Notes: generated from the sequence alone by a model not told the origin. Positions 16,103 through 57,293 are shown, counted from the first letter of the stretch. The stretch is DNA of 64,000 nt from an uncultured Candidatus Saccharibacteria bacterium (GCA_964459225.1 CAYWKB010000001.1:354777-418776); one strand, 5' to 3'. Numbers and translations: made by a program.

Positions 16103-16106
16103 ATAT

Positions 16107-17252
16107 ATGAATGAGACAGAAATGACTAAAAAACCCCTTAAAATAATGATTTTATCATTAGCTTATTATCCTAACTATATAGGTGGGGCAGAGGTAGCTA
16201 TAAAAGAAATAACAGATAGGGTATCTGATATTGAATTTCATATGATTACTTTAGGTGAATCGAGACAAATTGGAAATATAAAAATATTTGGTATTTTAGG
16301 GAAACTTAATTTCATTAACAAAATACTCTATCCTTTTATTTCATTTATTAAATTATCTTTATTAAATAAAAAAAATAATTATGATTTGATATGGCCAATG
16401 ATGGCAAGTTATGCAGGCTTTTCAGCTATGTTATTTAAAGCTTTTAATAAAAATAGTAAAGTACTATTAACAATACAAGAAGGTGAAAATTTTGAGAGAA
16501 GAAAAGGAATATTTTATCCATTTTTCAGGGAGATTTTTGAAAGTGCAGATTATATACAAGTTATTTCTAATTTCCTCAAAACTTGGTCAATTGAAATGGG
16601 CGCCTCATGTCCTATCGAGGTAATTCCAAATGGTGTTGATATTAAATATTTTTCAAATAAGATTTCTGATACAGAATTAAATGATTTAAAGTTTAAATTA
16701 AATAAAAGAGATGAAGATGTGTTTTTAATTACTACAAGTAGATTAGTAAATAAAAATGCTGTGGAAGATATTATTTCATCATTACAATTTTTACCATCAA
16801 ATATTAAATTATTAATATTGGGAGATGGAGAACTTAAAAACAAATTAATTGATCAGGTCAGTAAAATGAAATTAAATAATAGAGTTTCATTTTTGGGACA
16901 TATAGATAGAAAGGAATTACCAAAATACTTGCAGATTAGTGATATTTTTGTTCGTCCATCTATAAGTGAGGGTTTTGGTATTTCATATATTGAGGCAATG
17001 GCTTGTAATATTCCAGTAATAGCAACTCAAGTTGGTGGTATTGTTGATTTTATAAAAGATAGAGAAACAGGAATATTTTGTCAGGTTAATAATCCAAAAG
17101 ATATAAGTGATAAAGTAAAAGAGTTAGTTGAGAATACTCAATTAAAAAACACTATTATCGAGAACGCTTTTAATCTAGTAAAAAATAAATATGATTGGTC
17201 AAAAGTATCAAATGATATGAAAGATTTATTTATAAAGGTGTCAAGTAAATAG
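16107..17252 (+). CDS. Glycosyltransferase family 4 (GT-B, retaining)
   Basis: C-terminal E-x7-E motif region EGFGISYIEAMACNIPVIATQVGG. Confidence 0.8.
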   Translation: MNETEMTKKPLKIMILSLAYYPNYIGGAEVAIKEITDRVSDIEFHMITLGESRQIGNIKIFGILGKLNFINKILYPFISFIKLSLLNKKNNYDLIWPMMASYAGFSAMLFKAFNKNSKVLLTIQEGENFERRKGIFYPFFREIFESADYIQVISNFLKTWSIEMGASCPIEVIPNGVDIKYFSNKISDTELNDLKFKLNKRDEDVFLITTSRLVNKNAVEDIISSLQFLPSNIKLLILGDGELKNKLIDQVSKMKLNNRVSFLGHIDRKELPKYLQISDIFVRPSISEGFGISYIEAMACNIPVIATQVGGIVDFIKDRETGIFCQVNNPKDISDKVKELVENTQLKNTIIENAFNLVKNKYDWSKVSNDMKDLFIKVSSK

Positions 17253-17302
17253 ATCAATAACTAAAGATTACAAAAGAGTTAAAATATGCTAATATTTTAC
17301 CT

Positions 17303-18322
17303 ATGAAAATACTGATTTCAACTGGTATATACCCACCTGATATTGGTGGTCCCGCACAGTATGCAAGAAATTTGTATGAAACCTGGAAAGGTGAGGGTCA
17401 TGATGTAAAAGTAGCCGCATATAGATGGGAAAGGGCTTTTCCTACATTTTTAAGGCATTTTTTATTTTTTACTAAAATAATTAGAAAAGGATGGAATGCT
17501 GATTTGATATTAGTACTTGATACATGGAGTGCGGCAGTACCTACAATGTATGCATGTAAATTAATGAGAAAAAAATACATAATACGTACTGGTGGTGATT
17601 TCCTATGGGAAAGTTATACCGAAAGAACAGGCGAATTGGTTTTGTTTAAAGATTTTTATTCTACTGCATTAAATAAATTATCAAAAAAAGAAAAGATAGT
17701 TTATAAATTTGGTGGTGAAGCACTTAGAAATGCTTCACTTATAATATTTAGTACTGAGTGGCAAAAAAATATTTTTGAAAAAGCATATAGATTAAATAAA
17801 AATAAAAATTACATAGTTGAAAATCATTGCGGTGAAAGGGAAGAACAAATAGAGCCAGAAAATAGGGTTTTTGTTGCTGGGACAAGAGACTTAGTCTGGA
17901 AAAATCTAAATACACTTAAGAGTGCATTTAAAATAGCACAAGGAAGAGTAATAGAAAAAGGATTTGAATCAATAGAATTCGATACAACTAAAGCGGTATA
18001 TGACAATTTCCTTGAAAGAATGCGAAGATCTTATGCTGTGATACTTACTTCAATTGGTGATATAAGTCCAAATATGATATTTGATGCAATTAAAGTTGGA
18101 ACACCATTTATCTTAACAAAAGAAAATGGAATAACCGAAAGAGTTAAAGATTGTGCAATATTTGTCGATCCAATGAATGAAAAAGATATCTCAGATAAAA
18201 TAACATGGTTATCTGATCCAAATAATCGCAAAATTCAAGCCGATAAAATTAAAAAATTTACATGGGTTCATACATGGAAAGATATAGCAAAAGAAATTAT
18301 TACATTGTATAAAAAGATATAA
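17303..18322 (+). CDS. Glycosyltransferase, GT4-like (divergent)
   Basis: N-terminal ILISTGIYPPDIGGPAQYARNL is GT4 N-domain-like. The C-terminal domain is weakly conserved. Confidence 0.5.
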   Translation: MKILISTGIYPPDIGGPAQYARNLYETWKGEGHDVKVAAYRWERAFPTFLRHFLFFTKIIRKGWNADLILVLDTWSAAVPTMYACKLMRKKYIIRTGGDFLWESYTERTGELVLFKDFYSTALNKLSKKEKIVYKFGGEALRNASLIIFSTEWQKNIFEKAYRLNKNKNYIVENHCGEREEQIEPENRVFVAGTRDLVWKNLNTLKSAFKIAQGRVIEKGFESIEFDTTKAVYDNFLERMRRSYAVILTSIGDISPNMIFDAIKVGTPFILTKENGITERVKDCAIFVDPMNEKDISDKITWLSDPNNRKIQADKIKKFTWVHTWKDIAKEIITLYKKI

Positions 18323-18323
18323 T

Positions 18324-19385
18324 ATGATTGTACCCAATAATAAAATACAATATAAAACAGATTACGATAATTACTCTGATTATAAGGCAATTATGATATC
18401 AACTGACAGAATGATATTTAATGAAAGAAGTGCTGTAAGAAAAAGAATGATTGAATACAGTAAATCATATAAAGAGCTACATATTATAATTTTTTCAAAA
18501 AAAACACTAAAAAATCCGTCAGAAATTAAGATTTCAGACAATTGCTATGTTTACTCCACAGATTCAATTACTAGATTTTCTTATATAAATAATGCATTTA
18601 AAATTGGTAAAAAAATACTTAAGAGCTTCGATATAAATGAAAAAGTACTAATTACTTGTCAGGATCCATTTGAAACTGGATTAGCGGGGCGTAAAATAGC
18701 CAGTTTAAGACAAAATACTCATTTATTATTGCAAATACATACAGATTTATTTAGTCCATATTTTACTAAACATTCAATATTAAATCGCATTAGACTTTCA
18801 ATAGCCAGAAATACTTTAAGAGATGCTCAAACTGTAAGGGTGGTTTCAAGAAAAATAGCTGACTCACTTGTTTTGAGGGGAATTCCTGCGGATGATATTG
18901 TGCTTAAACCTATTGAAATAGCTAATTATAGTAATGATTTGAATCCAAGTTTTAATTTAAGGGATAAGTATAAGGAATTTAAAAAAATAATTTTAATTGT
19001 AAGTAGATTAGAATCAGAAAAAAATATAGACATGGCGATTAGAGCATTTTCGATTGTAAATAAAACTTCAAAAGATACTGCACTTGTTATAGTCGGATCA
19101 GGTAGTAAAATGAATTCTTTGAAAAAGATGTCTAGGAAATTTGGCTTGGAAAATTGCGTAAAATTTGAAGGTTGGCAAAATGATACTTTTTCATATTATA
19201 AAGTAGCCGATATTGTACTTGTAACATCTTGGTATGAAGGATATGGAATGGTCCTTAAGGAAGCAGCACAATTAGGTAAAAAGATAATATCTACCGATGT
19301 TGGTATTGCACAAGATATAGGTGCAGAGATTGTGGATTGGAATGAAAAAGATATTTCAAGAGCATTACTAAATAATTTAAATTAA
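18324..19385 (+). CDS. Glycosyltransferase family 4
   Basis: LVTSWYEGYGMVLKEAAQLGKKIISTDVG. Confidence 0.7.
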   Translation: MIVPNNKIQYKTDYDNYSDYKAIMISTDRMIFNERSAVRKRMIEYSKSYKELHIIIFSKKTLKNPSEIKISDNCYVYSTDSITRFSYINNAFKIGKKILKSFDINEKVLITCQDPFETGLAGRKIASLRQNTHLLLQIHTDLFSPYFTKHSILNRIRLSIARNTLRDAQTVRVVSRKIADSLVLRGIPADDIVLKPIEIANYSNDLNPSFNLRDKYKEFKKIILIVSRLESEKNIDMAIRAFSIVNKTSKDTALVIVGSGSKMNSLKKMSRKFGLENCVKFEGWQNDTFSYYKVADIVLVTSWYEGYGMVLKEAAQLGKKIISTDVGIAQDIGAEIVDWNEKDISRALLNNLN

Positions 19386-20075
19386 ATGAATTCAGATATT
19401 ATTAAAAGATTTAATAAAGTCAAAGTCTCTAGAACCTTTCTTAATATATTAGAGATTTATAATTTTAGTAATAAAAAAGTATTAGATATTGGATGTGGTT
19501 ATGGTGAGTATTTGAAGCTTTTCGGTACAAATAGTCAAGGTATAACAACTACAGATGATGAGGTTCGATATGGTAGTGAAAATAATATAAATATAGTTAA
19601 AGGTAATATTGAGGAGATTAATAATATGATAGGTCTAGGTAAATTTGAAGCCATATGGGCAAATAATCTATTTGAACATCTATCATCACCACATGTTTTT
19701 TTAATAAACTTAAAATCAATATCAACGCCTGACACAAATTTGATACTGGGAGTACCTGTTGTACCTAAAATTGTAAATTTGATGAAAATATCTAAATTTA
19801 GAGGTGCACTTGCGTCAAATCATATAGGTTTTTATACAAAAGACACGTTAAAACTAACAGTTAAGTATGCGGGATGGAAAGTTATTGAGATAAGACCATT
19901 TATATTTAAGATAAAAATCCTAGATTACCTTGCATCATTTTTTGCTCCTCATTTATATATTGTTGCAAAAAATGATGCTTCATTCAGGTATCCTGAAAAG
20001 AAGCAGAAAGAATGGAGGGGTGAAAAAATGTACAGTAACTTATTTAAAATAACAGAAAATGAAACTATTAATTAA
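19386..20075 (+). CDS. Class I SAM-dependent methyltransferase
   Basis: Motif I VLDIGCGYGEY. 229 aa. Confidence 0.7.
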   Translation: MNSDIIKRFNKVKVSRTFLNILEIYNFSNKKVLDIGCGYGEYLKLFGTNSQGITTTDDEVRYGSENNINIVKGNIEEINNMIGLGKFEAIWANNLFEHLSSPHVFLINLKSISTPDTNLILGVPVVPKIVNLMKISKFRGALASNHIGFYTKDTLKLTVKYAGWKVIEIRPFIFKIKILDYLASFFAPHLYIVAKNDASFRYPEKKQKEWRGEKMYSNLFKITENETIN

Positions 20076-21531
20076 ATACATTATTTCAGGTGGTACTGCG
20101 GCTATTGTTGATTTATCGATTTTGCATTATTTGGATGTTAGAGGATTTCATCATATTGTAAGTGTAAATATAGCATTTTTAATTGCATTTATTGTTAGTT
20201 TTTCATTTCAAAAATACTGGACATTTTCGGATTCAAAAAGTTATGAAGTACATAAGCAATTAAGGGATTATTTTATAGTATCAGTTATAAATGTCTTTCT
20301 TAATAATTTGATTATACAGTTTATTATTAAAATAAATTTAGTATCTGAAATACCAATACTTAGGGAAATCGTATGGGCGCAAATTATATCGTCTGCAATT
20401 ATAGCCGTTGAGTCTTTTGTGATTTATAGATTTTTTATTTTCAAAAAATCAACTAACAATTTGAATAATGGTTCAAATAAAAAAGGTATTTTGATTATTA
20501 CACAAAAAGTTGATAAAGATGATTCAATATTAGGATTTTTCCATGATTGGATAATGGAATTCTCAAAACAATATAATAATGTCATAGTTATTTGTTTGCA
20601 AAAAGGAAATTATGATTTGCCTAAAAATGTCGAAATATTAAGTATGGAAAAGGATAAAAATCCTAATAAATTTAAGTATATTTATTTACTTAATAAATTT
20701 GCATTTGAAAATAGAAATAAATATGATTACGTATTTTGCCATATGTCACCACTCTATGTTATTTCTGGTTTTGTGATATGGAAGATATTGCATAAAAAAA
20801 TCTCAATGTGGTATGTTCATAGAAATGTTGATTTAAAACTTAAAATTGCTAACTTACTTTCTGATTATATTTTTTCTTCTACAAAAGAAGGCTACAGAAT
20901 AAATACTAAAAAAGTTAAATATCTTGGGCAAGCGATTTTGGTAAATAAATTTCCATATTTAAAACACAAAATCCTTGATAAAAATACTAATATCAATATA
21001 TTAACAGTGGGTAGAATCACAAAAATCAAAAATTTAGATTATCTCATTAATACAATTAAGATACTTAAAGATAAAAATTATAATGTAAATTTAAATATTA
21101 TTGGAGAAGCAAAAATATCAAGTGATATAGAGTATTATAATGAATTAAAAAATCAAATTTCAAAACTAGGTCTGAATAGCAATATTAATTTTATAGGTTC
21201 AGTTAAATATGATGAATTAGCACATTACTATAATATTAACGATATATTTGTTAATTTAGCGCCTAGTGGTGGTCAAGATAAGGCGGTACTTGAAGCTATG
21301 TCATCTGGTATTCCAACCTTTGTTGCTAATACTGGATTTAAGGACTTTTATGGTGAATTTGCCTCAGATATGATATTTGAGTTAAATAATGTTGTGAGTT
21401 TATCAGATAAAATTGTGCAATATATAGATCAAGATAATCAAATACAAATAACTGAAATTATAAATAAAAATATAATTCAAAAGGCAGATTTATCTATTTT
21501 GATAAGTAATATCAGTAATGAATTAAAATAG
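20059..21531 (+). CDS. GtrA-like 4-TM domain fused to a GT4 glycosyltransferase
   Basis: N-terminal ~130 aa has 4 TM segments with the GtrA pattern (GGTAAIVDL...FSFQKYWTF). The C-terminus is GT4 (GGQDKAVLEAMSSGIPTFV). Confidence 0.65.
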   Translation: MKLLIKYIISGGTAAIVDLSILHYLDVRGFHHIVSVNIAFLIAFIVSFSFQKYWTFSDSKSYEVHKQLRDYFIVSVINVFLNNLIIQFIIKINLVSEIPILREIVWAQIISSAIIAVESFVIYRFFIFKKSTNNLNNGSNKKGILIITQKVDKDDSILGFFHDWIMEFSKQYNNVIVICLQKGNYDLPKNVEILSMEKDKNPNKFKYIYLLNKFAFENRNKYDYVFCHMSPLYVISGFVIWKILHKKISMWYVHRNVDLKLKIANLLSDYIFSSTKEGYRINTKKVKYLGQAILVNKFPYLKHKILDKNTNINILTVGRITKIKNLDYLINTIKILKDKNYNVNLNIIGEAKISSDIEYYNELKNQISKLGLNSNINFIGSVKYDELAHYYNINDIFVNLAPSGGQDKAVLEAMSSGIPTFVANTGFKDFYGEFASDMIFELNNVVSLSDKIVQYIDQDNQIQITEIINKNIIQKADLSILISNISNELK

Positions 21532-21533
21532 GT

Positions 21534-22994
21534 ATGGATTACAAAAACAGTCATTTAAAATATTTATTATTAGTACCAGTAGTTATTTTATTGTTTTATA
21601 CATTTACTAATTTAACCGAAAGTCCTGCTACTTGGATGGATGAGGGTATTATTGTACAGACGGCAAGGAATTATTCTGTATCAGGTTTTTCTGGTTTAAG
21701 GGTCGATCCAGAAAATGTGGTTTCTGCTGGCTATGTTACAACAAGTTATCCAGTAACGATGCCAATTGCTACGGTTTTTAATATATTTGGAATATCTCTT
21801 TTTAATGCGAGAATGGTTATGGCTATTTTTATTCTGATTCTTGTATTTTTTGTTTATAAAAATAATAAAAAATATTTAGAAAATGATTACTATTTACTAG
21901 CATTATCACTAATATTATTGGTGTCATTTCCACCATTATATGGGCATGGCAAAAACGTTTTAGGTGAAGTTCCTGGCATGGCTCTACTGTTTATCTCAGT
22001 TTATCTTTTTGATAAACTTATTTCTAATCACGATGACAAGGATATTTCAAAATATAAACAATATTCACTATTATTCCTATCCTCATTATTTTTTGGATTA
22101 GTTTTTGTGACAAAGCCTATTTTTATTATTTTGATTCCCGCTATCTTTATTACATTTTTTATTAAAAATAGATCAAACTTATTAAGTTTATTTGATAGGA
22201 AAAATGTTTCGCTTTATGTCATGTCTTTGATTGCTTTTTTTATACCTGTGCTTTTTTGGATAAAATTTCAATTTCATGGGGAGGGACTTGCCTATATGCT
22301 ATCTATATATGTTAATCCACAAAGTAATAGTTTAGAAAGCAACATAATCATTAATATTAAAAGATTTTTTACTGAATCACAGCCAATATACACATTATTG
22401 TTAATGGTAATTTGGACAATAGCAATTATTAAAAATAAATTCAATAAAATTAAAATAGGTAGTACTCAATTATTTTTATATATATTTTCACTACTGATAC
22501 TTGTTGCATATATAAGGACAACTGGATATTACAGATACTTTTTTATTGCAGAATTCATCGCTTTAACTTTCTTTATTTCAAATCTCAAATGCCTATTTAA
22601 AAATAAGATAATTATTTATTTTATTGCGATACCACTTATCTTGTATCAAATTTATAATTTAAATTATTCGAGTTGGGTTTCAAAATCAATTGATAATTCA
22701 CAGAGTGAAGATTTACAATTATTACTTTCAAATATATCAGATAAAAATGAGATCTTTGTGTACCAAGCGCCAGAAATAGTGACATTTATTAAAGGTGAAA
22801 ACTATTCTCAATATTTGCAAATCACATCAAGTATCCAGGTTGGTAGCACAAGTTTAACTAGGCTGGCCGAAAAAAAGCCTGAACTAATAGTCACAAACAG
22901 TATGTATAATGATGTTGTGTACAAAATCGTCGGTGATGCATATGAGGGCTATGCAAGTATAGGAAAATATAGTTTTATAAGAAAAAAGCATTGA
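21534..22994 (+). CDS. GT-C fold polytopic membrane glycosyltransferase (ArnT/PMT_2-like, polyprenyl-phosphate-sugar dependent)
   Basis: ~11 predicted TM helices. The first extracytoplasmic loop carries WMDEGIIVQTARNY, a DE/Y motif characteristic of the ArnT/PMT_2 family. Confidence 0.55.
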   Translation: MDYKNSHLKYLLLVPVVILLFYTFTNLTESPATWMDEGIIVQTARNYSVSGFSGLRVDPENVVSAGYVTTSYPVTMPIATVFNIFGISLFNARMVMAIFILILVFFVYKNNKKYLENDYYLLALSLILLVSFPPLYGHGKNVLGEVPGMALLFISVYLFDKLISNHDDKDISKYKQYSLLFLSSLFFGLVFVTKPIFIILIPAIFITFFIKNRSNLLSLFDRKNVSLYVMSLIAFFIPVLFWIKFQFHGEGLAYMLSIYVNPQSNSLESNIIINIKRFFTESQPIYTLLLMVIWTIAIIKNKFNKIKIGSTQLFLYIFSLLILVAYIRTTGYYRYFFIAEFIALTFFISNLKCLFKNKIIIYFIAIPLILYQIYNLNYSSWVSKSIDNSQSEDLQLLLSNISDKNEIFVYQAPEIVTFIKGENYSQYLQITSSIQVGSTSLTRLAEKKPELIVTNSMYNDVVYKIVGDAYEGYASIGKYSFIRKKH

Positions 22995-23017
22995 TTTTCT
23001 GGTATTTCTGTTAGAAT

Positions 23018-24610
23018 GTGTGTATACATAAAGATATGAAAACGGTTGTAGTGATACCAACATATAATGAAAGAGATACTGTAGAATCAATAATTCATAG
23101 AGTATTTGAAACTGTGCCTAATATAAATGTTTTAATCGTAGACGATAATTCTCCCGATAAGACATCAGAAGTGGTGGAGGCATTAATGAACAAATTTCCA
23201 AATTTATCTATTTTGAAGCGTAAAGGTAAAGAGGGTTTAGGTAAAGCGTATGTACATGCTTTTAAAGTTATATTATCTGACCATAACATCGAGAGGATAA
23301 TAACAATGGATGCAGATCAAAGTCATGATCCAAGTTATATTCCATCAATGCTTAAGTTATCAAAAGATTACGATTTGGTTATCGGATCTAGATATGTTAA
23401 AGGTGGTGATATAGTTGGTTGGGAAAAAAGTAGGAAATTTTTGAGTTATTTTGGAAATTTATATTCAAGATTAATTACGAGAATCAAGGTTAAAGATTTA
23501 ACTGCTGGATACAATGTCATATCTACTGATTTTTTAAGATTAATTAATTTGGATAATATCGGTAGTGCAGGGTATTCATTTACAATTGAATTTAAAAATT
23601 GTTTTTCTAGAAGCGGTGCTAGAATATATGAATTTCCAATAATTTTTAGAAATAGAGTTGTTGGAGAGTCAAAGATATCTAAAAAAATAATATATGAAGG
23701 ATTACTGATACCTTGGAGATTAATCTCTAAGGGAATATATGTAAATCTAACATGTATAGCCTGTGACAATAGTAAACATATCTTTTTTTCAAGAAAGAAT
23801 AGTTTTACTCTATATAAATGTGTTGAGTGTAGTAAAATTGTGATAAACCCAATCCCTAAAAGTTTTGATAACGTATATAATCAAGAATATTTTTCTGGTG
23901 CAAAAAACGGTTTTGGTTATGTAAATTATGATAAAGATAAAGAGGCTATGAAAAACGTTTTTCATAAATATCTAGATAAAATAGAGCAATACATAATCAA
24001 TAATAAAAATAAAAAAATACTAGATATAGGTGCTGCTACTGGATTTTTCATGAAAATAGCAATTAGCAAAGGCTTTAAAATTAAAGGCATTGAGTATTCA
24101 AAGGATGCTGCTGAATCAGGTAAAAAGAACGGACTAAATATTAGTGTTGGCACAATCGAAGATTATGATAGTAAAAAAGAAAAATTTGATGTTGTAACTA
24201 TGTTTGATGTTATTGAACATATTCCTAATCCAAAATTTAGTATTAAGGCAGTTTCAAATTTACTTGTTAAAAATGGACTATTACTTATTAATACTCCAGA
24301 CTCAGGAAGCTTTTTTGCTAAGCTTATGGGAAGCAAATGGCATTTGATTGTACCACCTGAACATATACATTATTTTAATAAAAAATCTCTCATCACATTG
24401 CTTGAATCAAACGGTTTTGAAATTGTAGAATACACAAAGATAGGTAAAAAATTTACTCTGGAATACGTCTCATCAATGCTCGCAAGATGGACTAATGTTG
24501 CTGTGTTTGATAGTACAACTAATATGTTGAAAAAAAGCTTTATTGGACAACTATCAATTCCCATAAATTTGAGAGATAATATGTTTGTCATGGCAAGAAA
24601 AATAAAATGA
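23018..24610 (+). CDS. Polyprenyl-phosphate sugar synthase (Dpm1/GtrB-like GT2) fused to a Cys4 zinc ribbon and a class I SAM methyltransferase
   Basis: N-terminus VVVIPTYNERDTVESII...LIVDDNSPDKT...GKEGLGKAYVHAF is Dpm1/GtrB-like. Residues ~250-285 are CIACDN...CVECS. The C-terminus has MT motif I ILDIGAATGFF and FDVVTMFDVIEHI. The start may be the Met at 23036. Confidence 0.75.
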   Translation: MCIHKDMKTVVVIPTYNERDTVESIIHRVFETVPNINVLIVDDNSPDKTSEVVEALMNKFPNLSILKRKGKEGLGKAYVHAFKVILSDHNIERIITMDADQSHDPSYIPSMLKLSKDYDLVIGSRYVKGGDIVGWEKSRKFLSYFGNLYSRLITRIKVKDLTAGYNVISTDFLRLINLDNIGSAGYSFTIEFKNCFSRSGARIYEFPIIFRNRVVGESKISKKIIYEGLLIPWRLISKGIYVNLTCIACDNSKHIFFSRKNSFTLYKCVECSKIVINPIPKSFDNVYNQEYFSGAKNGFGYVNYDKDKEAMKNVFHKYLDKIEQYIINNKNKKILDIGAATGFFMKIAISKGFKIKGIEYSKDAAESGKKNGLNISVGTIEDYDSKKEKFDVVTMFDVIEHIPNPKFSIKAVSNLLVKNGLLLINTPDSGSFFAKLMGSKWHLIVPPEHIHYFNKKSLITLLESNGFEIVEYTKIGKKFTLEYVSSMLARWTNVAVFDSTTNMLKKSFIGQLSIPINLRDNMFVMARKIK

Positions 24611-25749
24611 AAATAATATTTTTTTCAGCAGATTATATTCCTACTGGTGGTGGTATTGCCACATACGTTCATGAGCTTGTTCATAATACCTATAGCCACC
24701 CTTTGGTTACCGATACCAAATTAATTGTCTTTGGTAATAAAAATCCAAGGAAAGAACAATTTGAAAATGGTCTTGGTAAATTATATATAAAGACATATTC
24801 AAGTATTAATTTTTTATATACTGGTATTATGGTTTTTTTCTATTTTATTAATAATTTTAAATATGATATTTTTCATTCACTTAATTTATTTCCATTAGGA
24901 TTTTGGACAGTTTTTTGGGGTAAGATTTTCAATAAAAAAACTATTATAACTTTTTACGGAACTGATGCATGTGATACAAAGGCAAGTACAAAAACATTAT
25001 TTTTGAAAAAATGGTCAATAGTTAATTCTTCATTACCTTTGACGATTAGTGACTTTACTAAAACTCAGGTTGAAAAAAGGTATAATTTAAATCCTAATTT
25101 AATTAAATTCATTCATCCAATTGTTCCTGAAATAATGCTTAAAAATAATAAAGATAATTTTGATATAGATAAAATAAAGAGCGAAAATAATATTGAAAAA
25201 GATGATTTTGTAATACTAACCGTTTCAAGACTGGTTAAAAGGAAAGGTACAGATGATTTAATAAAGGCTATAGGCATCTTGAATGACAATAATATAAAAC
25301 TATTAATAATAGGTGATGGAAAGGAAAGGGAAAACTTAGAGAAGTTGATAATAGATAACAACCTCAGCAAAAACGTTAGATTATTAGGCAAGGTTAAGGA
25401 CATAACACCCTATTATCATTTAGCCGATGTATTTGCGCTTACTTCATATATTATCGAAAATGATGGTGATTTTGAGGGTTTTGGACTTGTTATGACCGAG
25501 GCCCAGTCATACGGCTTACCGGTAATAGGTACAAAAAGTGGTGGTATACCTGAGACATTCAATCATATGCAGACTGGAATATTGTTACCTGAAAGGGATA
25601 TTAAAGCCATTGCAAATGCAATTAAACAAATAAAAGATGATGATGTATTACAAAAGACAATGTCAGATAATACCAAAGATTTTTTGATTAATAATTTTGG
25701 CTATAAAAATTCAATTAATAAATATATAGAGCTTTGTAAGTCTCTATGA
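24607..25749 (+). CDS. Glycosyltransferase family 4
   Basis: EGFGLVMTEAQSYGLPVIGTKSGGIPE. Confidence 0.8.
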   Translation: MKIIFFSADYIPTGGGIATYVHELVHNTYSHPLVTDTKLIVFGNKNPRKEQFENGLGKLYIKTYSSINFLYTGIMVFFYFINNFKYDIFHSLNLFPLGFWTVFWGKIFNKKTIITFYGTDACDTKASTKTLFLKKWSIVNSSLPLTISDFTKTQVEKRYNLNPNLIKFIHPIVPEIMLKNNKDNFDIDKIKSENNIEKDDFVILTVSRLVKRKGTDDLIKAIGILNDNNIKLLIIGDGKERENLEKLIIDNNLSKNVRLLGKVKDITPYYHLADVFALTSYIIENDGDFEGFGLVMTEAQSYGLPVIGTKSGGIPETFNHMQTGILLPERDIKAIANAIKQIKDDDVLQKTMSDNTKDFLINNFGYKNSINKYIELCKSL

Positions 25750-25763
25750 TATAGTAAATAAAT

Positions 25764-26750
25764 ATGAAAGTCTCTGTAATATTACCAAATGGTAAAAGTG
25801 ATTATCTGGCAAATACAGTATTGGACGGTTTGCTTGAACTGTCGACAATTGATAAGGATTTGGTTTTTAAGATCACTACAAATTACCCTAATCCTTTTAA
25901 TATTAAAGAATATGAGTTGAGTAATTCTGAATTTACGGATTTTGCGAATGATGCAGATCTTATTATTTTATGTTGGGGGAAAAATAGTACTAATTATGAT
26001 TTAGCAAATAATATAAATAAATGGAATAAAACTATTTTTATTGATGGTTCCGAATTAGGTAAAAATAATAGATTTGATAAAAAGATAATACAAGAAGTTT
26101 TAGATGGTACATATAAGGGTATTGGTGCTATAGATCAGGATATGTTAATTAAATGTAAGGCATATTATAGAAGAGAAAAGCCGTATATAAATGGCATTAT
26201 TCCTTTTCCATTTGGTATTGAAAATAGATATAGGAAATTTTATAAAAAGGACATAAAAAGAGATATTGATTTTACTTGTATATTTGGACAAGATGAATAT
26301 CCGATTATGAGAAGGCAAGTAAAAGAATATTTAGAAAAGTTTTGTAAGAAAAATAATTTGATTTGTAAGACAAAAAGAACAAGTGATTTTAATTTTGATG
26401 ATAATACTAAGATTGCTGGCAGAGATGAGTTTTATGAAATATTATCAAGAACTAAAGTCGGTATATCTATAGGAGGTGGTGGTTTTGATACGGCTAGATT
26501 TTGGGAGATATTGGGTAGTGGCGCTATACTCATGACTGAAAAAATAGATATAGATAATACTAATTTAAAATATAAAAGAATAAAAGAATTTAGTGATTTT
26601 GAAGATTTTAAGATAAAATTAGACCAAATGGCCAATTATTTAAAGAATGAATACAATAATGATATTGAAATATTGGATGATGAGTATATTGATGTGATTT
26701 CTAAGCATTCTACTATTGCGAGAATAAAAGATATCTTAAATCATAAATAA
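25764..26750 (+). CDS. Hypothetical protein, possible GT-B-type glycosyltransferase
   Basis: The only support is a weak C-terminal GGGGFDTARFWEILGSGAI motif that resembles the GT1/GT4 sugar-donor loop. Confidence 0.3.
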   Translation: MKVSVILPNGKSDYLANTVLDGLLELSTIDKDLVFKITTNYPNPFNIKEYELSNSEFTDFANDADLIILCWGKNSTNYDLANNINKWNKTIFIDGSELGKNNRFDKKIIQEVLDGTYKGIGAIDQDMLIKCKAYYRREKPYINGIIPFPFGIENRYRKFYKKDIKRDIDFTCIFGQDEYPIMRRQVKEYLEKFCKKNNLICKTKRTSDFNFDDNTKIAGRDEFYEILSRTKVGISIGGGGFDTARFWEILGSGAILMTEKIDIDNTNLKYKRIKEFSDFEDFKIKLDQMANYLKNEYNNDIEILDDEYIDVISKHSTIARIKDILNHK

Positions 26751-27655
26751 TGAATAATACTAAATGTATAATATGTAATGCAATAACCAATCCTTTTATG
26801 ATAAAGGATAACTACAGTCTGTTTAAGTGCAGTGAATGTGCTTTGGTATTTATGAATCCATTACCAGAGCAAAAGTTTTTAAATAATGAAGTTTATTCTT
26901 TTGAGTCTGGTTATCAATCAAATAAAAACTCAGATTTATCTAAAGTTGTTCCATCAAAAAAGACAATAGATATAGTTAACTTTTTAATTAAAGAAAATAG
27001 ATATAAAAATATTTTAGATATTGGTTGTTCAAGTGGGGAGTTTATACACTATGCAAAATCAAAGGGTTTTAATGTTGCTGGGGTAGAATTAAACAAAAGG
27101 ACAGCCCAAATTGCTCAAAATAATGGTCTAAGAGTGTTTAATGGCCTATTATCTGATGCGAAATATCAGAATGGTGAATTCGATGTGATATTTTTGGGTG
27201 ATGTAATAGAACATGTTTTATCACCAAGTGATTTAATCAATGAATGCAAAAGAGTTTTAAGTAGTAACGGTATTATAATAGTTTCAACCCCTAATCTTGA
27301 TTGCTTGTGGTCAAATATAACTTTACTATTTTACAGATATTTTAAAATACCTTGGTCATCTGTTACACCCCCGTACCATACGTTTCAGTTTTCAATAAAT
27401 AATATTGATTTATTTTTTAATAATCTCGGTTTTAACAAAATATCTGAATGGTTTTATAAACCACCTAGACTTATGTACGAATTAGGTTCATTGCATTTAT
27501 TAAAAAAATATAAAAAGTCTAAAAATATACTTGATTTATTATTTATGATTTTTTCTTTTGCTTTATATTCTGTAACATACTATATCTGTTATTTATTAAA
27601 TATTTTTCTAAAAAAGGATTTTTCACATTTAGTGATCTATAAAAAAAATGATTAA
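26750..27655 (+). CDS. Zinc-ribbon + class I SAM methyltransferase (paralog of the MT domain at 23018..24610), C-terminal TM segment
   Basis: CIICNA...FKCSECAL Cys4 ribbon, then ILDIGCSSGEF and FLGDVIEHV. The same architecture as the C-terminal half of the preceding fusion. Confidence 0.7.
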   Translation: MNNTKCIICNAITNPFMIKDNYSLFKCSECALVFMNPLPEQKFLNNEVYSFESGYQSNKNSDLSKVVPSKKTIDIVNFLIKENRYKNILDIGCSSGEFIHYAKSKGFNVAGVELNKRTAQIAQNNGLRVFNGLLSDAKYQNGEFDVIFLGDVIEHVLSPSDLINECKRVLSSNGIIIVSTPNLDCLWSNITLLFYRYFKIPWSSVTPPYHTFQFSINNIDLFFNNLGFNKISEWFYKPPRLMYELGSLHLLKKYKKSKNILDLLFMIFSFALYSVTYYICYLLNIFLKKDFSHLVIYKKND

Positions 27656-28667
27656 AGTATATCTATCTCCAAAAATAGAAGGATTAAAATATATTGATTT
27701 AATTAATCCTAATTTAAATATTAAAAATAATAAAACTTTTTTCGATGATTTTAATGTATTCAATGATTTGAGTGAAAATGTAGTAGAAATAGTTTCTGAT
27801 ATAGATCAAGCTCAATATATTATGATTCCATACAATATATTGCATATAGATAATTTAAATAATTATCTTAATTCAATTAGAGATATTTCAAAATCAAAAA
27901 AGATTATTGCATTTATTATAGGTGATTCTGATATCGATATTAAAATTGATAATTCAATAATATTTAGAATGTCTTGTTATGGTATAAAAATAAGAGAAAA
28001 TGAAATTATTATTCCTGCATATGCAAATGATTTATCAAAATATGATGCAATTAAGTTTCGAGTTAAAAATGAGATGCCAGTTATAAGCTTTTGTGGCTGG
28101 GCAGGTGTACAGGGATTTTATTCAAAAATAAAATATTTCATTAAAAATTATTTAATATTAAAAGGTCCGTACAAGCAGGGAATTTATTTTAGAAGGAAAG
28201 CAATAAAAATATTAAATAAATCAAAATTAGTTAAGACAAATTTTATAATCAGGGATTCATACAGCGCAAATGCTAAAACAATTAAAATAGATCCAAAGAT
28301 TGCAAGGAAAGAATATATTGATAATATTGTTAATTCTGATTTTGTACTTTGCCCTAAAGGTGACGGAAACTTTTCTGTTAGATTTTATGAAGTATTAAGC
28401 CTCGGTAGAATACCGATACTCATAGATACTGATATGATATTGCCTTTAAATAAGGATATTGATTATAGTAAATTTATTTTAAGAATTAATTATAAAGATA
28501 TTCATAATATTGATAAAATAGTCTCTGATTTCTATAATAAAATCACTGAAGATGAATGGATTAAAATGCAATCGATTGCAAGACAGGAATTCGTAAATCA
28601 TCTAAATATTGTATCTTTTTTTAAATTTATTTTGACTAAGGAAAACATTGAAAAATATATAAAATAA
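27648..28667 (+). CDS. Exostosin-like (GT47-like) glycosyltransferase
   Basis: C-terminal FVLCPKGDGNFSVRFYEVLSLGRIPILIDTDMILPL matches the exostosin motif F.LCP.GD..S.R..DA...GCIPVI. Confidence 0.55.
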   Translation: MIKVYLSPKIEGLKYIDLINPNLNIKNNKTFFDDFNVFNDLSENVVEIVSDIDQAQYIMIPYNILHIDNLNNYLNSIRDISKSKKIIAFIIGDSDIDIKIDNSIIFRMSCYGIKIRENEIIIPAYANDLSKYDAIKFRVKNEMPVISFCGWAGVQGFYSKIKYFIKNYLILKGPYKQGIYFRRKAIKILNKSKLVKTNFIIRDSYSANAKTIKIDPKIARKEYIDNIVNSDFVLCPKGDGNFSVRFYEVLSLGRIPILIDTDMILPLNKDIDYSKFILRINYKDIHNIDKIVSDFYNKITEDEWIKMQSIARQEFVNHLNIVSFFKFILTKENIEKYIK

Positions 28668-28671
28668 AAAA

Positions 28672-48113: not shown

Positions 48114-48608
48114 ATGAAGCCTGCTAAAATCGTCACTTTCGAAGAATTTTCAAGAATTAAGAAAAATTTAGGTAAAATAGTTTGTACTTCTGGTGGCTTC
48201 GATCCTATCCATCCTGGTCATGTATCTTGCATCTTTGAATCAAAGAAATATGGTGACACACTAGTGGTTATTGTGAATGGTGATACTTTTTTGAAAAATA
48301 AGAAAGGGAAGCATTTTATGGACTTGAATACAAGATGCCATATTGTATCTTATATTAAAGGCGTTGATTATGTTATCCCATTTGAAATTGAAAATGATCA
48401 AACTGTTTGTGTTGCATTAGAGAGGATTAAGCCGAATGTGTTTACCAAGGGTGGAGATAGAATAAATGAAAAAACAATACCTGAATGGTCTATTTGTAAT
48501 AAAAATAAAATAAAAGTTATATCTGGGGTTGGATTTGATAAGAAATGGAGTAGTTCTGACCTACTTAAAGATTGGATAGAATACAATAATACTCTTTCTG
48601 TAAAGTAG
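48114..48608 (+). CDS. Cytidylyltransferase-family nucleotidyltransferase (TagD / RfaE domain II-like)
   Basis: TSGGFDPIHPGH (HxGH motif). 164 aa. Confidence 0.7.
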   Translation: MKPAKIVTFEEFSRIKKNLGKIVCTSGGFDPIHPGHVSCIFESKKYGDTLVVIVNGDTFLKNKKGKHFMDLNTRCHIVSYIKGVDYVIPFEIENDQTVCVALERIKPNVFTKGGDRINEKTIPEWSICNKNKIKVISGVGFDKKWSSSDLLKDWIEYNNTLSVK

Positions 48609-55865: not shown

Positions 55866-57293
55866 ATGCAAAATAATCACATGATTAAAAAGTTTTTTGA
55901 AAATAAATACCTTCCAATACTGACTATAATAGCAGTTAGTCTAATCACTCATTTTATTTTCTTTGGTTATCCTAGTTCTGTTGTATTTGATGAAGTGCAT
56001 ATAGGGAAATACATAATGTGGCATTTACAAGGTAGCTACTTTTTTGATGTACATCCGCCACTCGGTAGACTTATTTTTGCTTTTTTCGCTTATATTTTTA
56101 ATGATGGTAATTTCAATGTTGATTTCAATAAAATAGGTAATACATTACCACATTGGATAATTATGCTCAGATTAATACCAACATTATTTGGTATTGCACT
56201 CCCACTTGTCTGTTATGGGATTTCAAATAGATTAAAAATTGATAAGGTATTGTCATTTATAGGAGCAATATTTATTTGTTTTGAAAATTCACTTATAGTT
56301 CAATCTAGATTTATACTCACTGATAGTTTTATTTTGTTTTTTGGCTTTATTTCAATTTATATTTATTTGATTTATAGAGATAATCTTAATAGTAAAAATA
56401 ATTGGATAATATTGTACTCATCAATTTTCTTCGCGAGTTTAACATTTAGTATTAAGTGGATTGGACTTTCTTTTATTGGGACAATATTTTTCTTTGAAAT
56501 AATTTCCTATATCAAATTTGGATTTAAGAGATTTACTATTGATTCGCTTAAGTTTTCGATGATTTCATTTATAATATTTATGTCTGTTTACATGTCTATA
56601 TTTGCAATACACTTTAAAGTTTTGCCTAAAACTGGCGATGGGGATCCATATATGTCCGAAGCATTTCAAAAGACATTAATAGGTAATAAAAATGAAAATA
56701 ACAGTGCGATAATTCCTAAGGATAAATTTATAAGTAAATTTGCCGAATTAAATGCTGAAATGATAAGTGCAAATAATAGACTTACGCAAAAACACGACTA
56801 TTCAAGCCTTTGGTATACATGGCCAATTATGAAAAGACCAATTTATTATTGGAATTCTGGAGATGATAAAAGTATTATAAATATGGTAGGGGAAAAGTCT
56901 CATATATATTTTATTGGTAATCCTTTCCTGTATTGGTTTGGGGCATTAAGTATTATTGTTTTAATAATTATTTCACTGATTAAATATAAAGAAATTCAGA
57001 AAAATTATTCTACAAATTTGATTTTATTTGGATATTTTATAAATTTCTTACCTTTTATATTTATCGGAAGAGTTATGTTTTTATACCATTATGCATGTGC
57101 ACTAGTCTTTGGTATTTTAGCAATTATTATTTTAATAAATAAAATAAAAGGTGAAAATGAGAGAAAAATAACAGCAACATTACTATTAATAATTGTTACT
57201 ATGTCCTATATATACTTCAGTCCACTTACATATGGACTTGCTCTAAATGATACACAATTACAAAATAGGATTTGGATCTCTAGTTGGAGATAG
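55866..57293 (+). CDS. Dolichyl/polyprenyl-phosphate-mannose protein O-mannosyltransferase (PMT family, GT39)
   Basis: VVFDEVHIGKYIMWHLQGSYFFDVHPPLGRL closely matches the PMT loop-1 DE motif. Polytopic membrane protein. Confidence 0.8.
   Translation: MQNNHMIKKFFENKYLPILTIIAVSLITHFIFFGYPSSVVFDEVHIGKYIMWHLQGSYFFDVHPPLGRLIFAFFAYIFNDGNFNVDFNKIGNTLPHWIIMLRLIPTLFGIALPLVCYGISNRLKIDKVLSFIGAIFICFENSLIVQSRFILTDSFILFFGFISIYIYLIYRDNLNSKNNWIILYSSIFFASLTFSIKWIGLSFIGTIFFFEIISYIKFGFKRFTIDSLKFSMISFIIFMSVYMSIFAIHFKVLPKTGDGDPYMSEAFQKTLIGNKNENNSAIIPKDKFISKFAELNAEMISANNRLTQKHDYSSLWYTWPIMKRPIYYWNSGDDKSIINMVGEKSHIYFIGNPFLYWFGALSIIVLIIISLIKYKEIQKNYSTNLILFGYFINFLPFIFIGRVMFLYHYACALVFGILAIIILINKIKGENERKITATLLLIIVTMSYIYFSPLTYGLALNDTQLQNRIWISSWR

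Follow-up and report, generated by a model that had tools for sequence, protein, structure and literature searches.

A Putative Lipid-Linked Sugar Glycosylation Module Built from Fusion Proteins in a Patescibacteria-Type Genome

Introduction

The closest described systems to the locus considered here, phage GtrA-GtrB-Gtr*, ArnC-ArnE/F-ArnT, CsbB-GtcA-YfhO and GacI/GacJ-GacK-GacL, follow one and the same logic, in which a GT-A/GT2 polyprenyl-P-sugar synthase is combined with a small membrane protein of the GtrA family and a GT-C enzyme. Variants in which a soluble GT-A enzyme works together with a separate membrane protein are recognised among such systems; in the case of GacI/GacJ, the synthase has no transmembrane (TM) segment of its own and depends on a separate membrane protein (PMC8035078). 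Flippase activity has not been directly demonstrated for any member of the GtrA family, the founders included, and the same has been stated for comparable flippases (PMC11127046). According to section 10 of PMC12992685, which cites Kolly 2015, it has been disputed that the mycobacterial GtrA protein Rv3789 acts as a flippase.

In the type-III Dol-P-Man synthase (DPMS) of Pyrococcus furiosus (PfDPMS; PDB 5mlz/5mm1/9ep0), the catalytic domain and a 4-TM domain are parts of a single polypeptide. Transferase activity persists without the TM domain, which holds a flipped Dol-P-Man (PMC12992685). By the authors' definition, strict type III occurs in archaea only (PMC12992685).

Here, we describe three consecutive genes, ORF1–ORF3, in a window of 64,000 nucleotides (the whole stretch of DNA that was analysed; all positions are counted from its first letter) from an uncultured host of the Patescibacteria, Paceibacteria/Parcubacteria type. 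The three-part machinery, which puts a sugar on a membrane lipid, carries it to the other side of the membrane and adds it to a target outside the cell, is already known; at this locus, it occurs with recurrent fusions and with regular methyltransferase (MT) and GT4 partners. The module differs from the systems above in that GtrA does not stand alone as a small protein but shares one ORF with a GT4. The synthase carries a zinc-ribbon methyltransferase, GT4 and MT are conserved extra partners, and the genes lie within a large cluster for glycan synthesis in a genome of the Patescibacteria type.

Results and Discussion

Gene Layout

The features of the locus are as follows:

19386..20075, + strand: small class I methyltransferase, 229 aa (Methyltransf_23, 52 bits), directly upstream of ORF1
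20059-21531, + strand: ORF1, fusion of a GtrA 4-TM domain and a GT4
20059..20454, + strand: N-terminal GtrA-like 4-TM domain of ORF1, aa 1-132 (PF04138; predicted N-in/C-in)
20482..21531, + strand: C-terminal GT4 (GT-B fold) glycosyltransferase domain of ORF1, aa ~142-490 (Glycos_transf_1; predicted cytoplasmic)
21534-22994, + strand: ORF2, 11-TM GT-C with an extracytoplasmic C-terminal α/β domain, aa ~385-486 (PMT_2, AF2 model)
23036 (probable start) to 24610, + strand: ORF3, a DPMS/Ppm1-like GT2 that continues into a Cys4 zinc ribbon and then a class I SAM methyltransferase
23036..23731, + strand: predicted N-terminal GT2 (GT-A) polyprenyl-phosphate hexose synthase domain of ORF3 (Glycos_transf_2, phmmer, Foldseek)
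23744..23845, + strand: Cys4 zinc ribbon of ORF3 (C246, C249, C268 and C271; conserved Cys)
23846..24610, + strand: class I SAM-dependent methyltransferase domain of ORF3 with C-terminal extension (Methyltransf_23)

The three ORFs are closely packed on the + strand. ORF1 starts within the upstream methyltransferase gene, and its stop is separated from the start of ORF2 by 2 nt. The start of ORF3 is most likely the ATG at 23036 (MKTVVVIPTYNE, 524 aa) rather than the GTG at 23018, and the database protein P0121 is identical to the 524-aa product. All Pfam matches of ORF1–ORF3 exceeded the curated cut-offs, which upheld the domains that the initial annotation had assigned to the three genes. Its numbers of TM helices for ORF1 and ORF2 also agreed with hydropathy analysis, which gave four segments in ORF1 (aa 6-128), 10–11 in ORF2 and none in ORF3.

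The GtrA and GT4 Domains of ORF1

As the initial annotation had supposed, the N-terminus of ORF1 belongs to the GtrA family and is fused to a GT4 in one ORF. Residues 6-128 matched GtrA_DPMS_TM (PF04138) at 64.1 bits, compared to a cut-off of 26.1, and covered the profile from end to end (positions 1-117 of 117). The positive charges are concentrated at the N-terminus, in the loop between TM2 and TM3 and in the stretch past TM4. This distribution and the hydropathy fit a predicted four-TM, N-in/C-in layout, as do all of the natural fusion orders described below. In the domain alignment, the WTF motif (W54, T55 and F56), G11, Q51 and K52 are invariant; the invariant polar and aromatic residues within the TM helices are Q51, K52, W54, T55, F56 and N82.

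The sole PDB match of the GtrA profile was the TM domain of PfDPMS (5mlz, residues 255-370, E 2e-7). Since the ORF3 GT2 domain matched residues 21-247 of the same chain (see below), the two domains together span the whole of PfDPMS. The catalytic domain of PfDPMS corresponds to the ORF3 GT2, in which its DAD, SRY, Arg and Ser ligands recur, and its TM domain to the ORF1 GtrA, which likewise has the WTF motif. Whereas the type-III enzyme is a single polypeptide, the catalytic and 4-TM parts are here split over ORF3 and ORF1, and each is fused to another enzyme. The TM residues N277, F338 and R341 of the type-III enzyme are replaced by S47, A116 and S119 in ORF1, and the polar-pocket Asn248 aligns to D18, which is D or N in relatives. 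The split polypeptides, together with the unkept polar pocket (Asn248, Asn277) and gating Phe338, rule out a strict type-III DPMS.

The C-terminal domain of ORF1 matched Glycos_transf_1 at aa 308-459 (80 bits), and the EAM/E412 and K408 region is conserved in the GT4 alignment. Parcubacteria are rich in free-standing GT4 orthologues of ~350 aa with 38–48% identity to this domain. The GtrA:GT4 fusion was found in ~20 clusters at 90% identity clustering; with clustering at 50% identity, ~9 of the 150 best representatives carried it.

The GT-C Protein ORF2

ORF2 was predicted from the sequence to be a GT-C of ~11 TM helices with a WMDEG...ARNY motif, and the family, fold and motif results all agreed with this. 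Residues 78-242 matched PMT_2 (PF13231) at 34.3 bits (cut-off 26.1), and the AlphaFold (AF2) model has 11 TM helices and a C-terminal α/β domain (pLDDT 91.5, pTM 0.92). The best Foldseek match of the model was ArnT (5ezm, E 1.7e-7, TMq 0.60); others included ALG12, STT3, AglB, DPY19, AftA/B and Pmt4, and all of the top 23 PDB matches were GT-C enzymes. The GT-C homology of the 21534 protein was thus found both by PMT_2 and by Foldseek, and places it with the ArnT/PMT_2-like enzymes near GT83/GT39.

The catalytic-loop motif, W34-M-D36-E37-G38...A44-R-N-Y47, lies at aa 34-47, with D36 and E37 in the first outer loop, directly past TM1. Among 45 homologues, conservation reaches at least 90% at W34, D36, E37 and G38. 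The fold, together with fusions to and adjacency with the GT2 synthase, suggests that ORF2 would use a polyprenyl-phosphate-linked donor.

The Synthase and Methyltransferase Domains of ORF3

ORF3 had been described as a Dpm1/GtrB-like synthase fused to a zinc ribbon and a SAM methyltransferase, a description borne out by Pfam, the invariant cysteines and Foldseek. Residues 11-169 matched Glycos_transf_2 (100 bits), and in a phmmer search aa 5-236 aligned to the PfDPMS chain (5mlz, 21-247; E 1.6e-31), which was also the best Foldseek match of the GT2 domain (E 3.6e-18, 29% identity, rmsd 2.6 Å), followed by ArnC and GtrB. The closest NCBIfam match was AglJ (E 6e-16), well under the family cut-off. 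The domain ends with an amphipathic interface helix at aa 222-237 (530-aa numbering), with a hydrophobic moment of 0.44.

Metal and lipid-phosphate ligands, defined as in PMC12992685, were compared across 38 homologues. The DXD motif, 98-DADQSHDP-105, corresponds to DADxQHPP in PfDPMS; D100 is invariant and D98 nearly so. The lipid-phosphate ligands are also kept: S124, R125, R139 and S143 do not vary, Y126 hardly does, and these residues align to Arg117 (SRY), Arg131 and Ser135 of PfDPMS. Lys178 of PfDPMS (KIL) aligns to S187 in a gapped stretch, and a nearly invariant K193 follows 6 residues downstream.

In the C-terminal half, C246, C249 and C271 of the zinc ribbon are invariant and C268 nearly invariant in the 38 fused homologues, while all four are invariant in an alignment with 17 free-standing homologues. 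Residues 313-471 matched Methyltransf_23 (94 bits), and neither the SAM motif D336-x-G338-x-A340-x-G342 nor E400-H401 varies among the 38 homologues. The zinc ribbon and MT fold was closest to the NDP-sugar C-methyltransferases MtmC, KijD1 and TcaB9 (E about 1e-13), and the sequence profile matched the same group (E 2e-10). In these enzymes, as in this half of ORF3, a Cys4 zinc domain at the N-terminus precedes a class I SAM methyltransferase; the TcaB9/KijD1-type match spans about 300 columns at 13–16% identity. In contrast to them, ORF3 is without a full C-terminal sugar-nucleotide-binding domain and is fused to a lipid-phosphate glycosyltransferase. ORF3 shares the zinc and MT core of the TcaB9/KijD1 type, but Pfam gave no match to the N-domain Methyltransf_13 or the C-terminal, NDP-sugar-binding Methyltransf_14 (PF08421, PF08484) at E ≤ 0.01. 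Because the fold resembles soluble NDP-sugar C-methyltransferases, the zinc-ribbon methyltransferase (Zn-MT) may never touch a lipid-linked sugar.

A paralogue of this half is encoded downstream:

26750..27655, + strand: zinc-ribbon methyltransferase paralogue that ends in a hydrophobic C-terminal tail (30% identical to the C-terminal half of ORF3)

The two have the CxxC...CxxC pattern in common, and the hydrophobic tail suggests that the paralogue may act at the membrane. It is a conserved cluster member, and a Zn-MT match of ~160 bits recurs near GT-C in many loci.

Conserved Fusions and Gene Order

Both fusions recur in other Patescibacteria genomes. The GT2:Zn-ribbon:MT fusion is widespread, with at least 85 protein clusters at 36–56% identity, and among 80 species-level loci GT2 and Zn-MT were fused in 7 and adjacent as separate genes in 20. 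The earlier view that this fusion is unusual was thus not sustained. For GtrA:GT4 it was overstated: the fusion is the rarer of the two, yet it is the fused, minority form of two genes, GtrA|GT4, that commonly lie side by side. The GT2:Zn-ribbon:MT fusion is already named in one NCBI record.

GtrA was present in 45/80 loci, and the GT4 and GT2 orthologues occurred together in 23/80 (odds ratio 7.7, uncorrected for phylogeny); in 38/80, the GT-C was accompanied only by more distant GT2s. The order MT-GtrA:GT4-GT-C-GT2:MT is kept in L006-L008, with orthologues 43–50% identical, while L009 has the order GT4 | GtrA:GT-C | GT2:MT; the small upstream methyltransferase holds the same position in L006, L007, L008 and L009. 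The three-gene module first proposed is therefore supported by synteny, but it is not a strict trio, since in L004 neither a GT-C nor a GT2-MT adjoins the orthologous GtrA:GT4. Rather, the conserved unit consists of five domains: GtrA, GT4, GT-C, GT2 and Zn-MT. The components are also joined in Rosetta-stone fusions: GtrA:GT-C in at least 9 protein clusters (P0248 and 8 others), GT2:GT-C of the ORF2 family in P0311 and L065, and GT2:GtrA:MT in P0155, where GtrA is inserted between GT2 and MT. The five-domain gene set appears to occur in several interchangeable states of fusion, of which the one in the window is an example, and the two fusions suggest that synthesis, flipping and the GT/MT steps may be physically coupled.

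We considered the possibility that the ORF1 GtrA does no more than anchor or recruit the GT4 at the membrane, or hold the enzyme complex together as a scaffold, with flipping carried out by another protein (the ABC exporter described below or an unlinked flippase) and with GT-C and GT2 as mere cluster members. Such an anchor role fits because GtrA pairs mostly with GT4: it adjoins (11 loci) or is fused to (7 loci) the GT4 orthologue more often than GT-C or GT2. The GtrA:GT4 of L004, the unproven flippase activity of the family and the lost PfDPMS pocket and gating residues point the same way. However, the GtrA domain of P0248 has 58.6% identity to that of ORF1, and is by this measure the same orthologue, fused to a GT-C whose 11 TM helices need no anchor. 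Furthermore, GtrA is also placed between GT2 and MT in P0155, and the invariant residues in its TM helices suggest more than an anchor. We thus consider a pure anchor unlikely, and regard the ORF1 GtrA as a candidate polyprenyl-P-sugar translocator and/or membrane dock.

A Proposed Pathway

The locus probably encodes a Patescibacteria form of multi-component transmembrane glycosylation, with a GT2 synthase, GtrA and a GT-C as its parts. The GtrABC and ArnC/ArnT logic read from the sequence in the initial annotation is supported by homology, fold, synteny and the Rosetta-stone fusions. The sugar, lipid carrier, acceptor and methylation site named in the following are those that we infer.

By strong homology, the TM-less ORF3 GT2 would act at the cytoplasmic face, where it would load polyprenyl phosphate with a hexose (most plausibly mannose) taken from an NDP-sugar. 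The ORF1 GtrA, in which the TM domain of the archaeal type-III Dol-P-Man synthase would exist in detached form, would then take up the polyprenyl-P-sugar and aid its crossing of the membrane; it may additionally dock the soluble synthase and the GT4. Finally, judging from fold and motif, ORF2 would use the flipped polyprenyl-P-sugar to glycosylate an acceptor outside the membrane, most likely a glycan or lipoglycan made by the surrounding cluster of GT4, GT2, GT11, GT47 and methyltransferase genes. The GT4 probably makes or extends the lipid-linked acceptor at the cytoplasmic face, and the Zn-MT probably methylates the sugar at either the NDP-sugar or the polyprenyl-P-sugar stage.

The mycobacterial Ppm1/PimA-PimB/PimE-MptA lipoglycan pathway likewise combines cytoplasmic GT4s, a GT2 polyprenyl-P-mannose synthase without its own TM segments and an extracytoplasmic GT-C that uses the lipid-linked sugar. 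The resemblance of the present module is in general outline only; no phosphatidylinositol chemistry is implied, and no orthology to PimA, PimB or PimE is claimed.

A more elaborate, five-activity system is conceivable, but tentative. The ORF3-coupled Zn-MT would give a methylated sugar on polyprenyl monophosphate, acting on the NDP-sugar immediately before transfer or on the polyprenyl-P-hexose immediately after it, the GT-C would add methyl-hexoses outside, and GtrA would be a mobile translocator that contacts synthase, GT4 and GT-C in turn, as suggested by the alternative GtrA fusions to each. If so, neither methylation of a donor sugar at the stage of the lipid monophosphate nor a client-fused GtrA would have a described bacterial precedent in the literature searched.

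The Surrounding Cluster

The five-domain unit lies inside a ~30-kb methylated-glycan cluster, which also encodes a Wzy_C-family protein and an ABC exporter. Two features of the window bear on the pathway:

46220-48007: ABC exporter
55866..57293, + strand: second GT-C of the window, a GT39-type PMT (PMT 112 bits, PMT_4TMC 153 bits)

Among the window ORFs with 100 aa or more that were run against Pfam, none matched a phosphoglycosyl transferase (PF00953, PF02397). This would suit an archaeal-style, AglJ/AglP-like scheme, in which the GT2 primes polyprenyl monophosphate, GT4s and MTs build a methylated oligosaccharide, and the GT-C transfers it en bloc after flipping, in the manner of an oligosaccharyltransferase. 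The AglJ match of the GT2, distant as it is, the fusions and adjacencies that tie GT4 and MT to GT2 and GtrA, the presence of STT3 and AglB among the ORF2 fold matches and the tail of the paralogous Zn-MT are consistent with such a scheme. However, the nearest fold to ORF2 is ArnT, a monosaccharide transferase, and ORF2, judging from its length and sequence, appears to lack the large STT3-type C-terminal domain and WWDYG. Moreover, an initiating transferase may sit elsewhere in the genome, and the Wzy_C-family protein and ABC exporter suit a conventional Und-PP pathway. We consider en bloc transfer improbable.

The PMT may also draw on the lipid-linked sugar that ORF3 would make, as a second consumer. 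That it is the main one, in protein O-mannosylation as in actinobacteria, with ORF2 a secondary or unrelated consumer, strikes us as rather doubtful. A bona fide PMT and PMT_4TMC protein does lie 31 kb downstream, and P0240, a natural fusion, carries PMT and PMT_4TMC together with a GT2 that has 52% identity to that of ORF3. The conserved immediate neighbour, however, is ORF2 and not the PMT, and GT2:GT-C fusions occur in the ORF2 family as well. The two uses are not mutually exclusive.

Gene Arrangement and Domain Composition

From 14342 to 29787, every gene is on the + strand, and neighbouring genes overlap or nearly abut; the GC content is uniformly ≈28% across the window. Three consecutive genes in this run encode the proteins considered here, listed with their Pfam matches:

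20059–21531, + strand, ORF1 (490 aa): GtrA_DPMS_TM, residues 6–128 (64 bits); Glycos_transf_1, residues 308–459 (80 bits)
21534–22994, + strand, ORF2 (486 aa): PMT_2, residues 78–242 (34 bits)
23018–24610, + strand, ORF3 (530 aa counted from GTG): Glycos_transf_2, residues 11–169 (100 bits); Methyltransf_23, residues 313–471 (94 bits)

ORF1 starts within the preceding methyltransferase (MT) gene, and 2 nt separate its stop from the start of ORF2. ORF3 most likely starts at ATG 23036 (MKTVVVIPTYNE...) rather than at GTG 23018, since the ATG agrees with the family consensus and with the 524-aa database protein P0121; the 530-aa numbering is used throughout. All of these matches exceeded the curated cut-offs, and each domain that the initial annotation had named in the three proteins was thereby recovered. 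NCBIfam gave sub-threshold matches only for all three proteins, so that no equivalog name could be assigned. By hydropathy, there are four TM segments in residues 6–128 of ORF1, ten to eleven in ORF2, and none in ORF3. The possibility that the fusions were assembly or frameshift artefacts was ruled out by the presence of identical proteins on 4–6 independent contigs and of orthologous fusions in many MAGs.

The GT-C Transferase, ORF2

Searching the PDB with the ORF2 sequence alone returned no match, and the fold was therefore established through AlphaFold and Foldseek. The AlphaFold model, calculated with 45 homologues as input, is confident (pLDDT 91.5, pTM 0.92) and consists of 11 TM helices and a C-terminal α/β domain. 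When this model was compared to the PDB, the top 23 matches were exclusively GT-C enzymes, led by ArnT (5ezm; E = 1.7e-7, TMq 0.60) and followed by ALG12, STT3, AglB, DPY19, AftA/B and Pmt4. Together with the PMT_2 match, this upheld the proposed GT-C identity. The WMDEG...ARNY motif previously pointed out in this protein is real: W34, D36, E37 and G38, which lie immediately C-terminal to TM1, are kept in at least 90% of the 45 homologues. In GT-C enzymes, the catalytic acidic residues are located directly after TM1.

The Predicted Synthase-Methyltransferase, ORF3

The N-terminal half of ORF3 is clearly predicted, from sequence and model, to be a polyprenyl-phosphate hexose synthase. Its best phmmer match was the Dol-P-Man synthase of Pyrococcus furiosus (PfDPMS; E = 1.6e-31), with weaker matches to ArnC and GtrB, and the AlphaFold model (pLDDT 90.2) superimposed on the PfDPMS structure (5mlz) at 2.6 Å with 29% identity. 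The residues defining the active site and lipid-phosphate site of DPMS were taken from PMC12992685; in ORF3, 98-DADQSHDP-105, S124-R125-Y126, R139 and S143 are invariant or nearly so among 38 homologues, and the position of PfDPMS Lys178 is ambiguous in the alignment. The GT2 domain ends in an amphipathic helix (residues 222–237, hydrophobic moment 0.44), the counterpart of the interface helix located ahead of the TM domain of PfDPMS.

The GT2 domain is followed by a Cys4 zinc ribbon, with three of its cysteines (C246, C249, C271) invariant and the fourth, C268, nearly so in the same 38 homologues, and then by a class I methyltransferase whose SAM motif is intact. By profile and by fold, this C-terminal half is nearest to the NDP-sugar C-methyltransferases MtmC, KijD1 and TcaB9, with which it has the layout of a zinc domain plus methyltransferase in common, although the identity is only 13–16% and Pfam did not detect the Pfam-defined terminal domains of these enzymes in ORF3.

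The GtrA Domain and Its Relationship to DPMS

When the PDB was searched with a profile built from the ORF1 GtrA domain and related sequences, the sole match was to chain residues 255–370 of PfDPMS (E = 2e-7), which constitute the TM domain of that enzyme. ORF3 aligns with residues 21–247 of the same chain, so that the two proteins jointly tile the archaeal enzyme. The WTF motif is common to both GtrA and PfDPMS (W54, T55 and F56 are invariant), whereas the residues that form the polar pocket and the gate in type III enzymes are replaced in ORF1 (N277 by S47, F338 by A116 and R341 by S119). Strict membership in type III DPMS was consequently rejected, these residues being part of its definition. 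From the shared halves and motif, ORF1 GtrA and ORF3 may work like a split type III DPMS that falls outside the definition of the authors (PMC12992685).

PfDPMS lacking its TM domain retains wild-type transferase activity, and the TM domain is able to hold flipped Dol-P-Man (PMC12992685). By analogy, these results fit a TM-less ORF3 that would be active alone and a detached, GtrA-like translocator. The pair would be a bacterial split counterpart of archaeal type III DPMS, for which flipping of the product by the TM domain has recently been proposed. That the GtrA domain serves merely as an anchor or scaffold is unlikely in our estimation; we favor a translocator that may also dock soluble enzymes.

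Fusion States and the Conserved Unit

Protein searches with Pfam checks showed that the partners of the GtrA domain vary by lineage. In about 17 clusters GtrA precedes GT4, as in the window; it follows the orthologous GT4 in three database proteins (P0046, P0104 and P0115), precedes the orthologous GT-C in P0248 and at least eight others, and is inserted between GT2 and MT in P0155. Fusions of GT2 to GT-C (P0311 and locus L065) and to PMT (P0240) were also found. The GtrA domain of P0248 is 58.6% identical to that of ORF1, equal to the similarity among the GtrA:GT4 orthologues themselves (the colon denoting fusion). A GtrA topology of four TM segments with both termini inside is consistent with all fusion orders.

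Both fusions in the window had initially been described as unusual. This does not apply to the GT2:Zn-MT fusion of ORF3; it is common, being found in 85 or more clusters at 90% identity, and is already labelled as such in one NCBI record. GtrA:GT4 is indeed a minority form, but it recurs. Among the best 150 matches when all 1.84 billion representatives were searched with HMMER, ≈9 were fused forms (six GtrA:GT4 and three GT4:GtrA), ≈110 were free-standing GT4s of ≈350 aa, and some twelve carried two GT4 domains in tandem (GT4-GT4).

The order MT, GtrA:GT4, GT-C, GT2:MT is kept in three orthologous loci at 43–50% identity, and locus L009 has separate GT4, GtrA:GT-C and GT2:MT genes. Locus L004 is an exception, with GtrA:GT4 present and an adjacent GT-C or GT2-MT absent. 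Eighty species-level loci around GT-C, all from Patescibacteria-type MAGs (e.g., Paceibacterota, Kaiser-, Yonath-, Vogel-, Zambryski-, Taylor- and Nomurabacteria), were scanned with purpose-built domain HMMs.

Domain arrangements in 80 loci around GT-C
GT2 orthologue present: 32/80
GT2 orthologue fused to Zn-MT: 7/80
GT2 orthologue followed by a separate Zn-MT gene: 20/80
GtrA present: 45/80
GtrA free-standing, directly upstream of the GT4 orthologue: 11/80
GtrA fused to GT4: 7/80
GtrA fused to GT-C: 7/80
GtrA fused to GT2: 3/80
Both GT4 and GT2 orthologues: 23/80

The odds ratio for co-occurrence of GT4 and GT2 was 7.7, uncorrected for phylogeny, and a spot check of L075 revealed a wholly unfused arrangement. 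From the varied fusions, the synteny and these counts, we conclude that the conserved unit is a set of five domains, and that the two fusions in the window are one among several interchangeable states.

Members of the GT4 family are also found in tandem, as GT4-GT4 proteins of ≈700–740 aa, and joined to a methyltransferase, as 594-aa MT:GT4 fusions (P0328, P0052, P0333, P0117 and others); fusion among glycan-cluster members is therefore pervasive in Patescibacteria. Many MAG records with the Paceibacteria-type cluster (L012, L013, L017, L051, L065 and others) are titled “uncultured Candidatus Saccharibacteria” or “uncultured Gammaproteobacteria”, titles that look unreliable for the bins of these GTDB-representative records.

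Proposed Mechanism

In the mechanism that we consider likely, the GT2 domain of ORF3 would charge polyprenyl phosphate with a hexose, the GtrA domain of ORF1 would take up and translocate the product, and ORF2 would pass the sugar, outside the membrane, to the glycan or lipoglycan of the cluster. Mannose is favored as the hexose because of the DPMS homology and the GT2:PMT fusion. Judging from linkage alone, the methyltransferase probably methylates the sugar shortly before or after lipid loading, and GT4 probably builds or extends the lipid-linked acceptor. The overall logic is that of known three-component glycosylation systems (PMC8035078, PMC11127046). Literature searches on GtrA in Patescibacteria, Parcubacteria glycosylation and GtrA/GT2/MT fusions gave nothing relevant; in the searched literature, three features seem to be undescribed: the conserved linkage with a Zn-ribbon methyltransferase and a GT4, the mobile nature of the GtrA domain, and the split-DPMS relationship in Patescibacteria.

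The system bears on whether GtrA-family proteins truly translocate lipid-linked sugars and on how TM-less synthases couple to them. One orthologous GtrA domain is naturally fused to each presumed client (synthase, GT-C and GT4), and these fusions, with the split DPMS, are ready-made constructs for tests of coupling and flipping. The data also point to a widespread, uncharacterised synthase-methyltransferase pairing that may account for the arrival of methylated sugars at the Patescibacteria surface. To our knowledge, the envelope glycans of Patescibacteria are essentially unstudied.

The Surrounding Glycan Cluster

ORF1–ORF3 lie within a ≈30-kb cluster (16.1–46 kb). Its glycosyltransferases include at least ten GT4s, several GT2s, one GT11 and one GT47-like enzyme; it also encodes no fewer than seven methyltransferases, one of them a Zn-ribbon paralogue of ORF3, together with an ABC exporter and two epimerase/dehydratases. 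Farther downstream, the window carries a Wzy_C+TPR protein and a DedA+PAP2 fusion, as well as a bona fide GT39 PMT. Coordinates of these and other features of the window are:

818–1720, + strand: NusB fused to a NUDIX hydrolase domain (300 aa)
14342–16102, + strand: TrwB/VirD4-like coupling-protein ATPase (TrwB_AAD_bind, T4SS-DNA_transf, DUF87)
26750–27655, + strand: Zn-ribbon methyltransferase paralogue of ORF3 (30% identity, same CxxC...CxxC)
46220–48007, − strand: ABC exporter
48114–48608: cytidylyltransferase-like gene
48643–50898, + strand: Wzy_C (O-antigen ligase/polymerase-like) with C-terminal TPR repeats (751 aa)
51665–52951, + strand: DedA/VTT domain fused to PAP2 phosphatase (428 aa)
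55866–57293, + strand: GT39-type protein O-mannosyltransferase (PMT + PMT_4TMC, 475 aa)

The flanks consist of housekeeping genes (S16, TrmD, RNase R, enolase and GroES), and the locus is therefore chromosomal and no prophage gtr cassette; these flanks and the uniform GC content ruled out a phage- or mobile-element-borne locus comparable to gtrABC.

No initiating phosphoglycosyl transferase (PF00953, PF02397) was detected by Pfam among ORFs of at least 100 aa between 14000 and 62000, despite more than 15 glycosyltransferases in the cluster. In this connection, en-bloc transfer of a glycan assembled on a monophosphate carrier, as in an AglJ/AglP-like pathway, was considered and appears unlikely compared to transfer of a single sugar by ORF2. 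The GT39 PMT is a second lipid-linked-sugar-dependent enzyme in the window, and the GT2 domain of P0240, the GT2:PMT fusion related to it, is 52% identical to that of ORF3. As an alternative, most of the lipid-linked sugar could go to this PMT; we regard this reading, which is compatible with the proposed mechanism, as rather unlikely.

The C-terminus of the paralogue at 26750–27655 is a hydrophobic tail (LLFMIFSFALYSVTYYICYLLNIFL) suggestive of membrane anchoring, and a ≈160-bit match to the Zn-MT HMM recurs ≈2 kb upstream of GT-C at many other loci. A part in recycling undecaprenyl phosphate is ascribed to DedA proteins, and one in dephosphorylating Und-PP to PAP2 enzymes; given these general roles, the DedA+PAP2 fusion may be a lipid-carrier recycling module. 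The Wzy_C+TPR gene adjoins the cytidylyltransferase-like gene and the ABC exporter. The TrwB/VirD4-like ATPase gene immediately precedes the first GT4 gene in the cluster, a placement kept in loci L001, L004, L006 and L007, and in L006 two prepilin-type (N_methyl) genes lie ahead of it; the glycan cluster is headed by a secretion- or pilus-type ATPase. The NusB:NUDIX architecture at 818–1720 looks uncommon.
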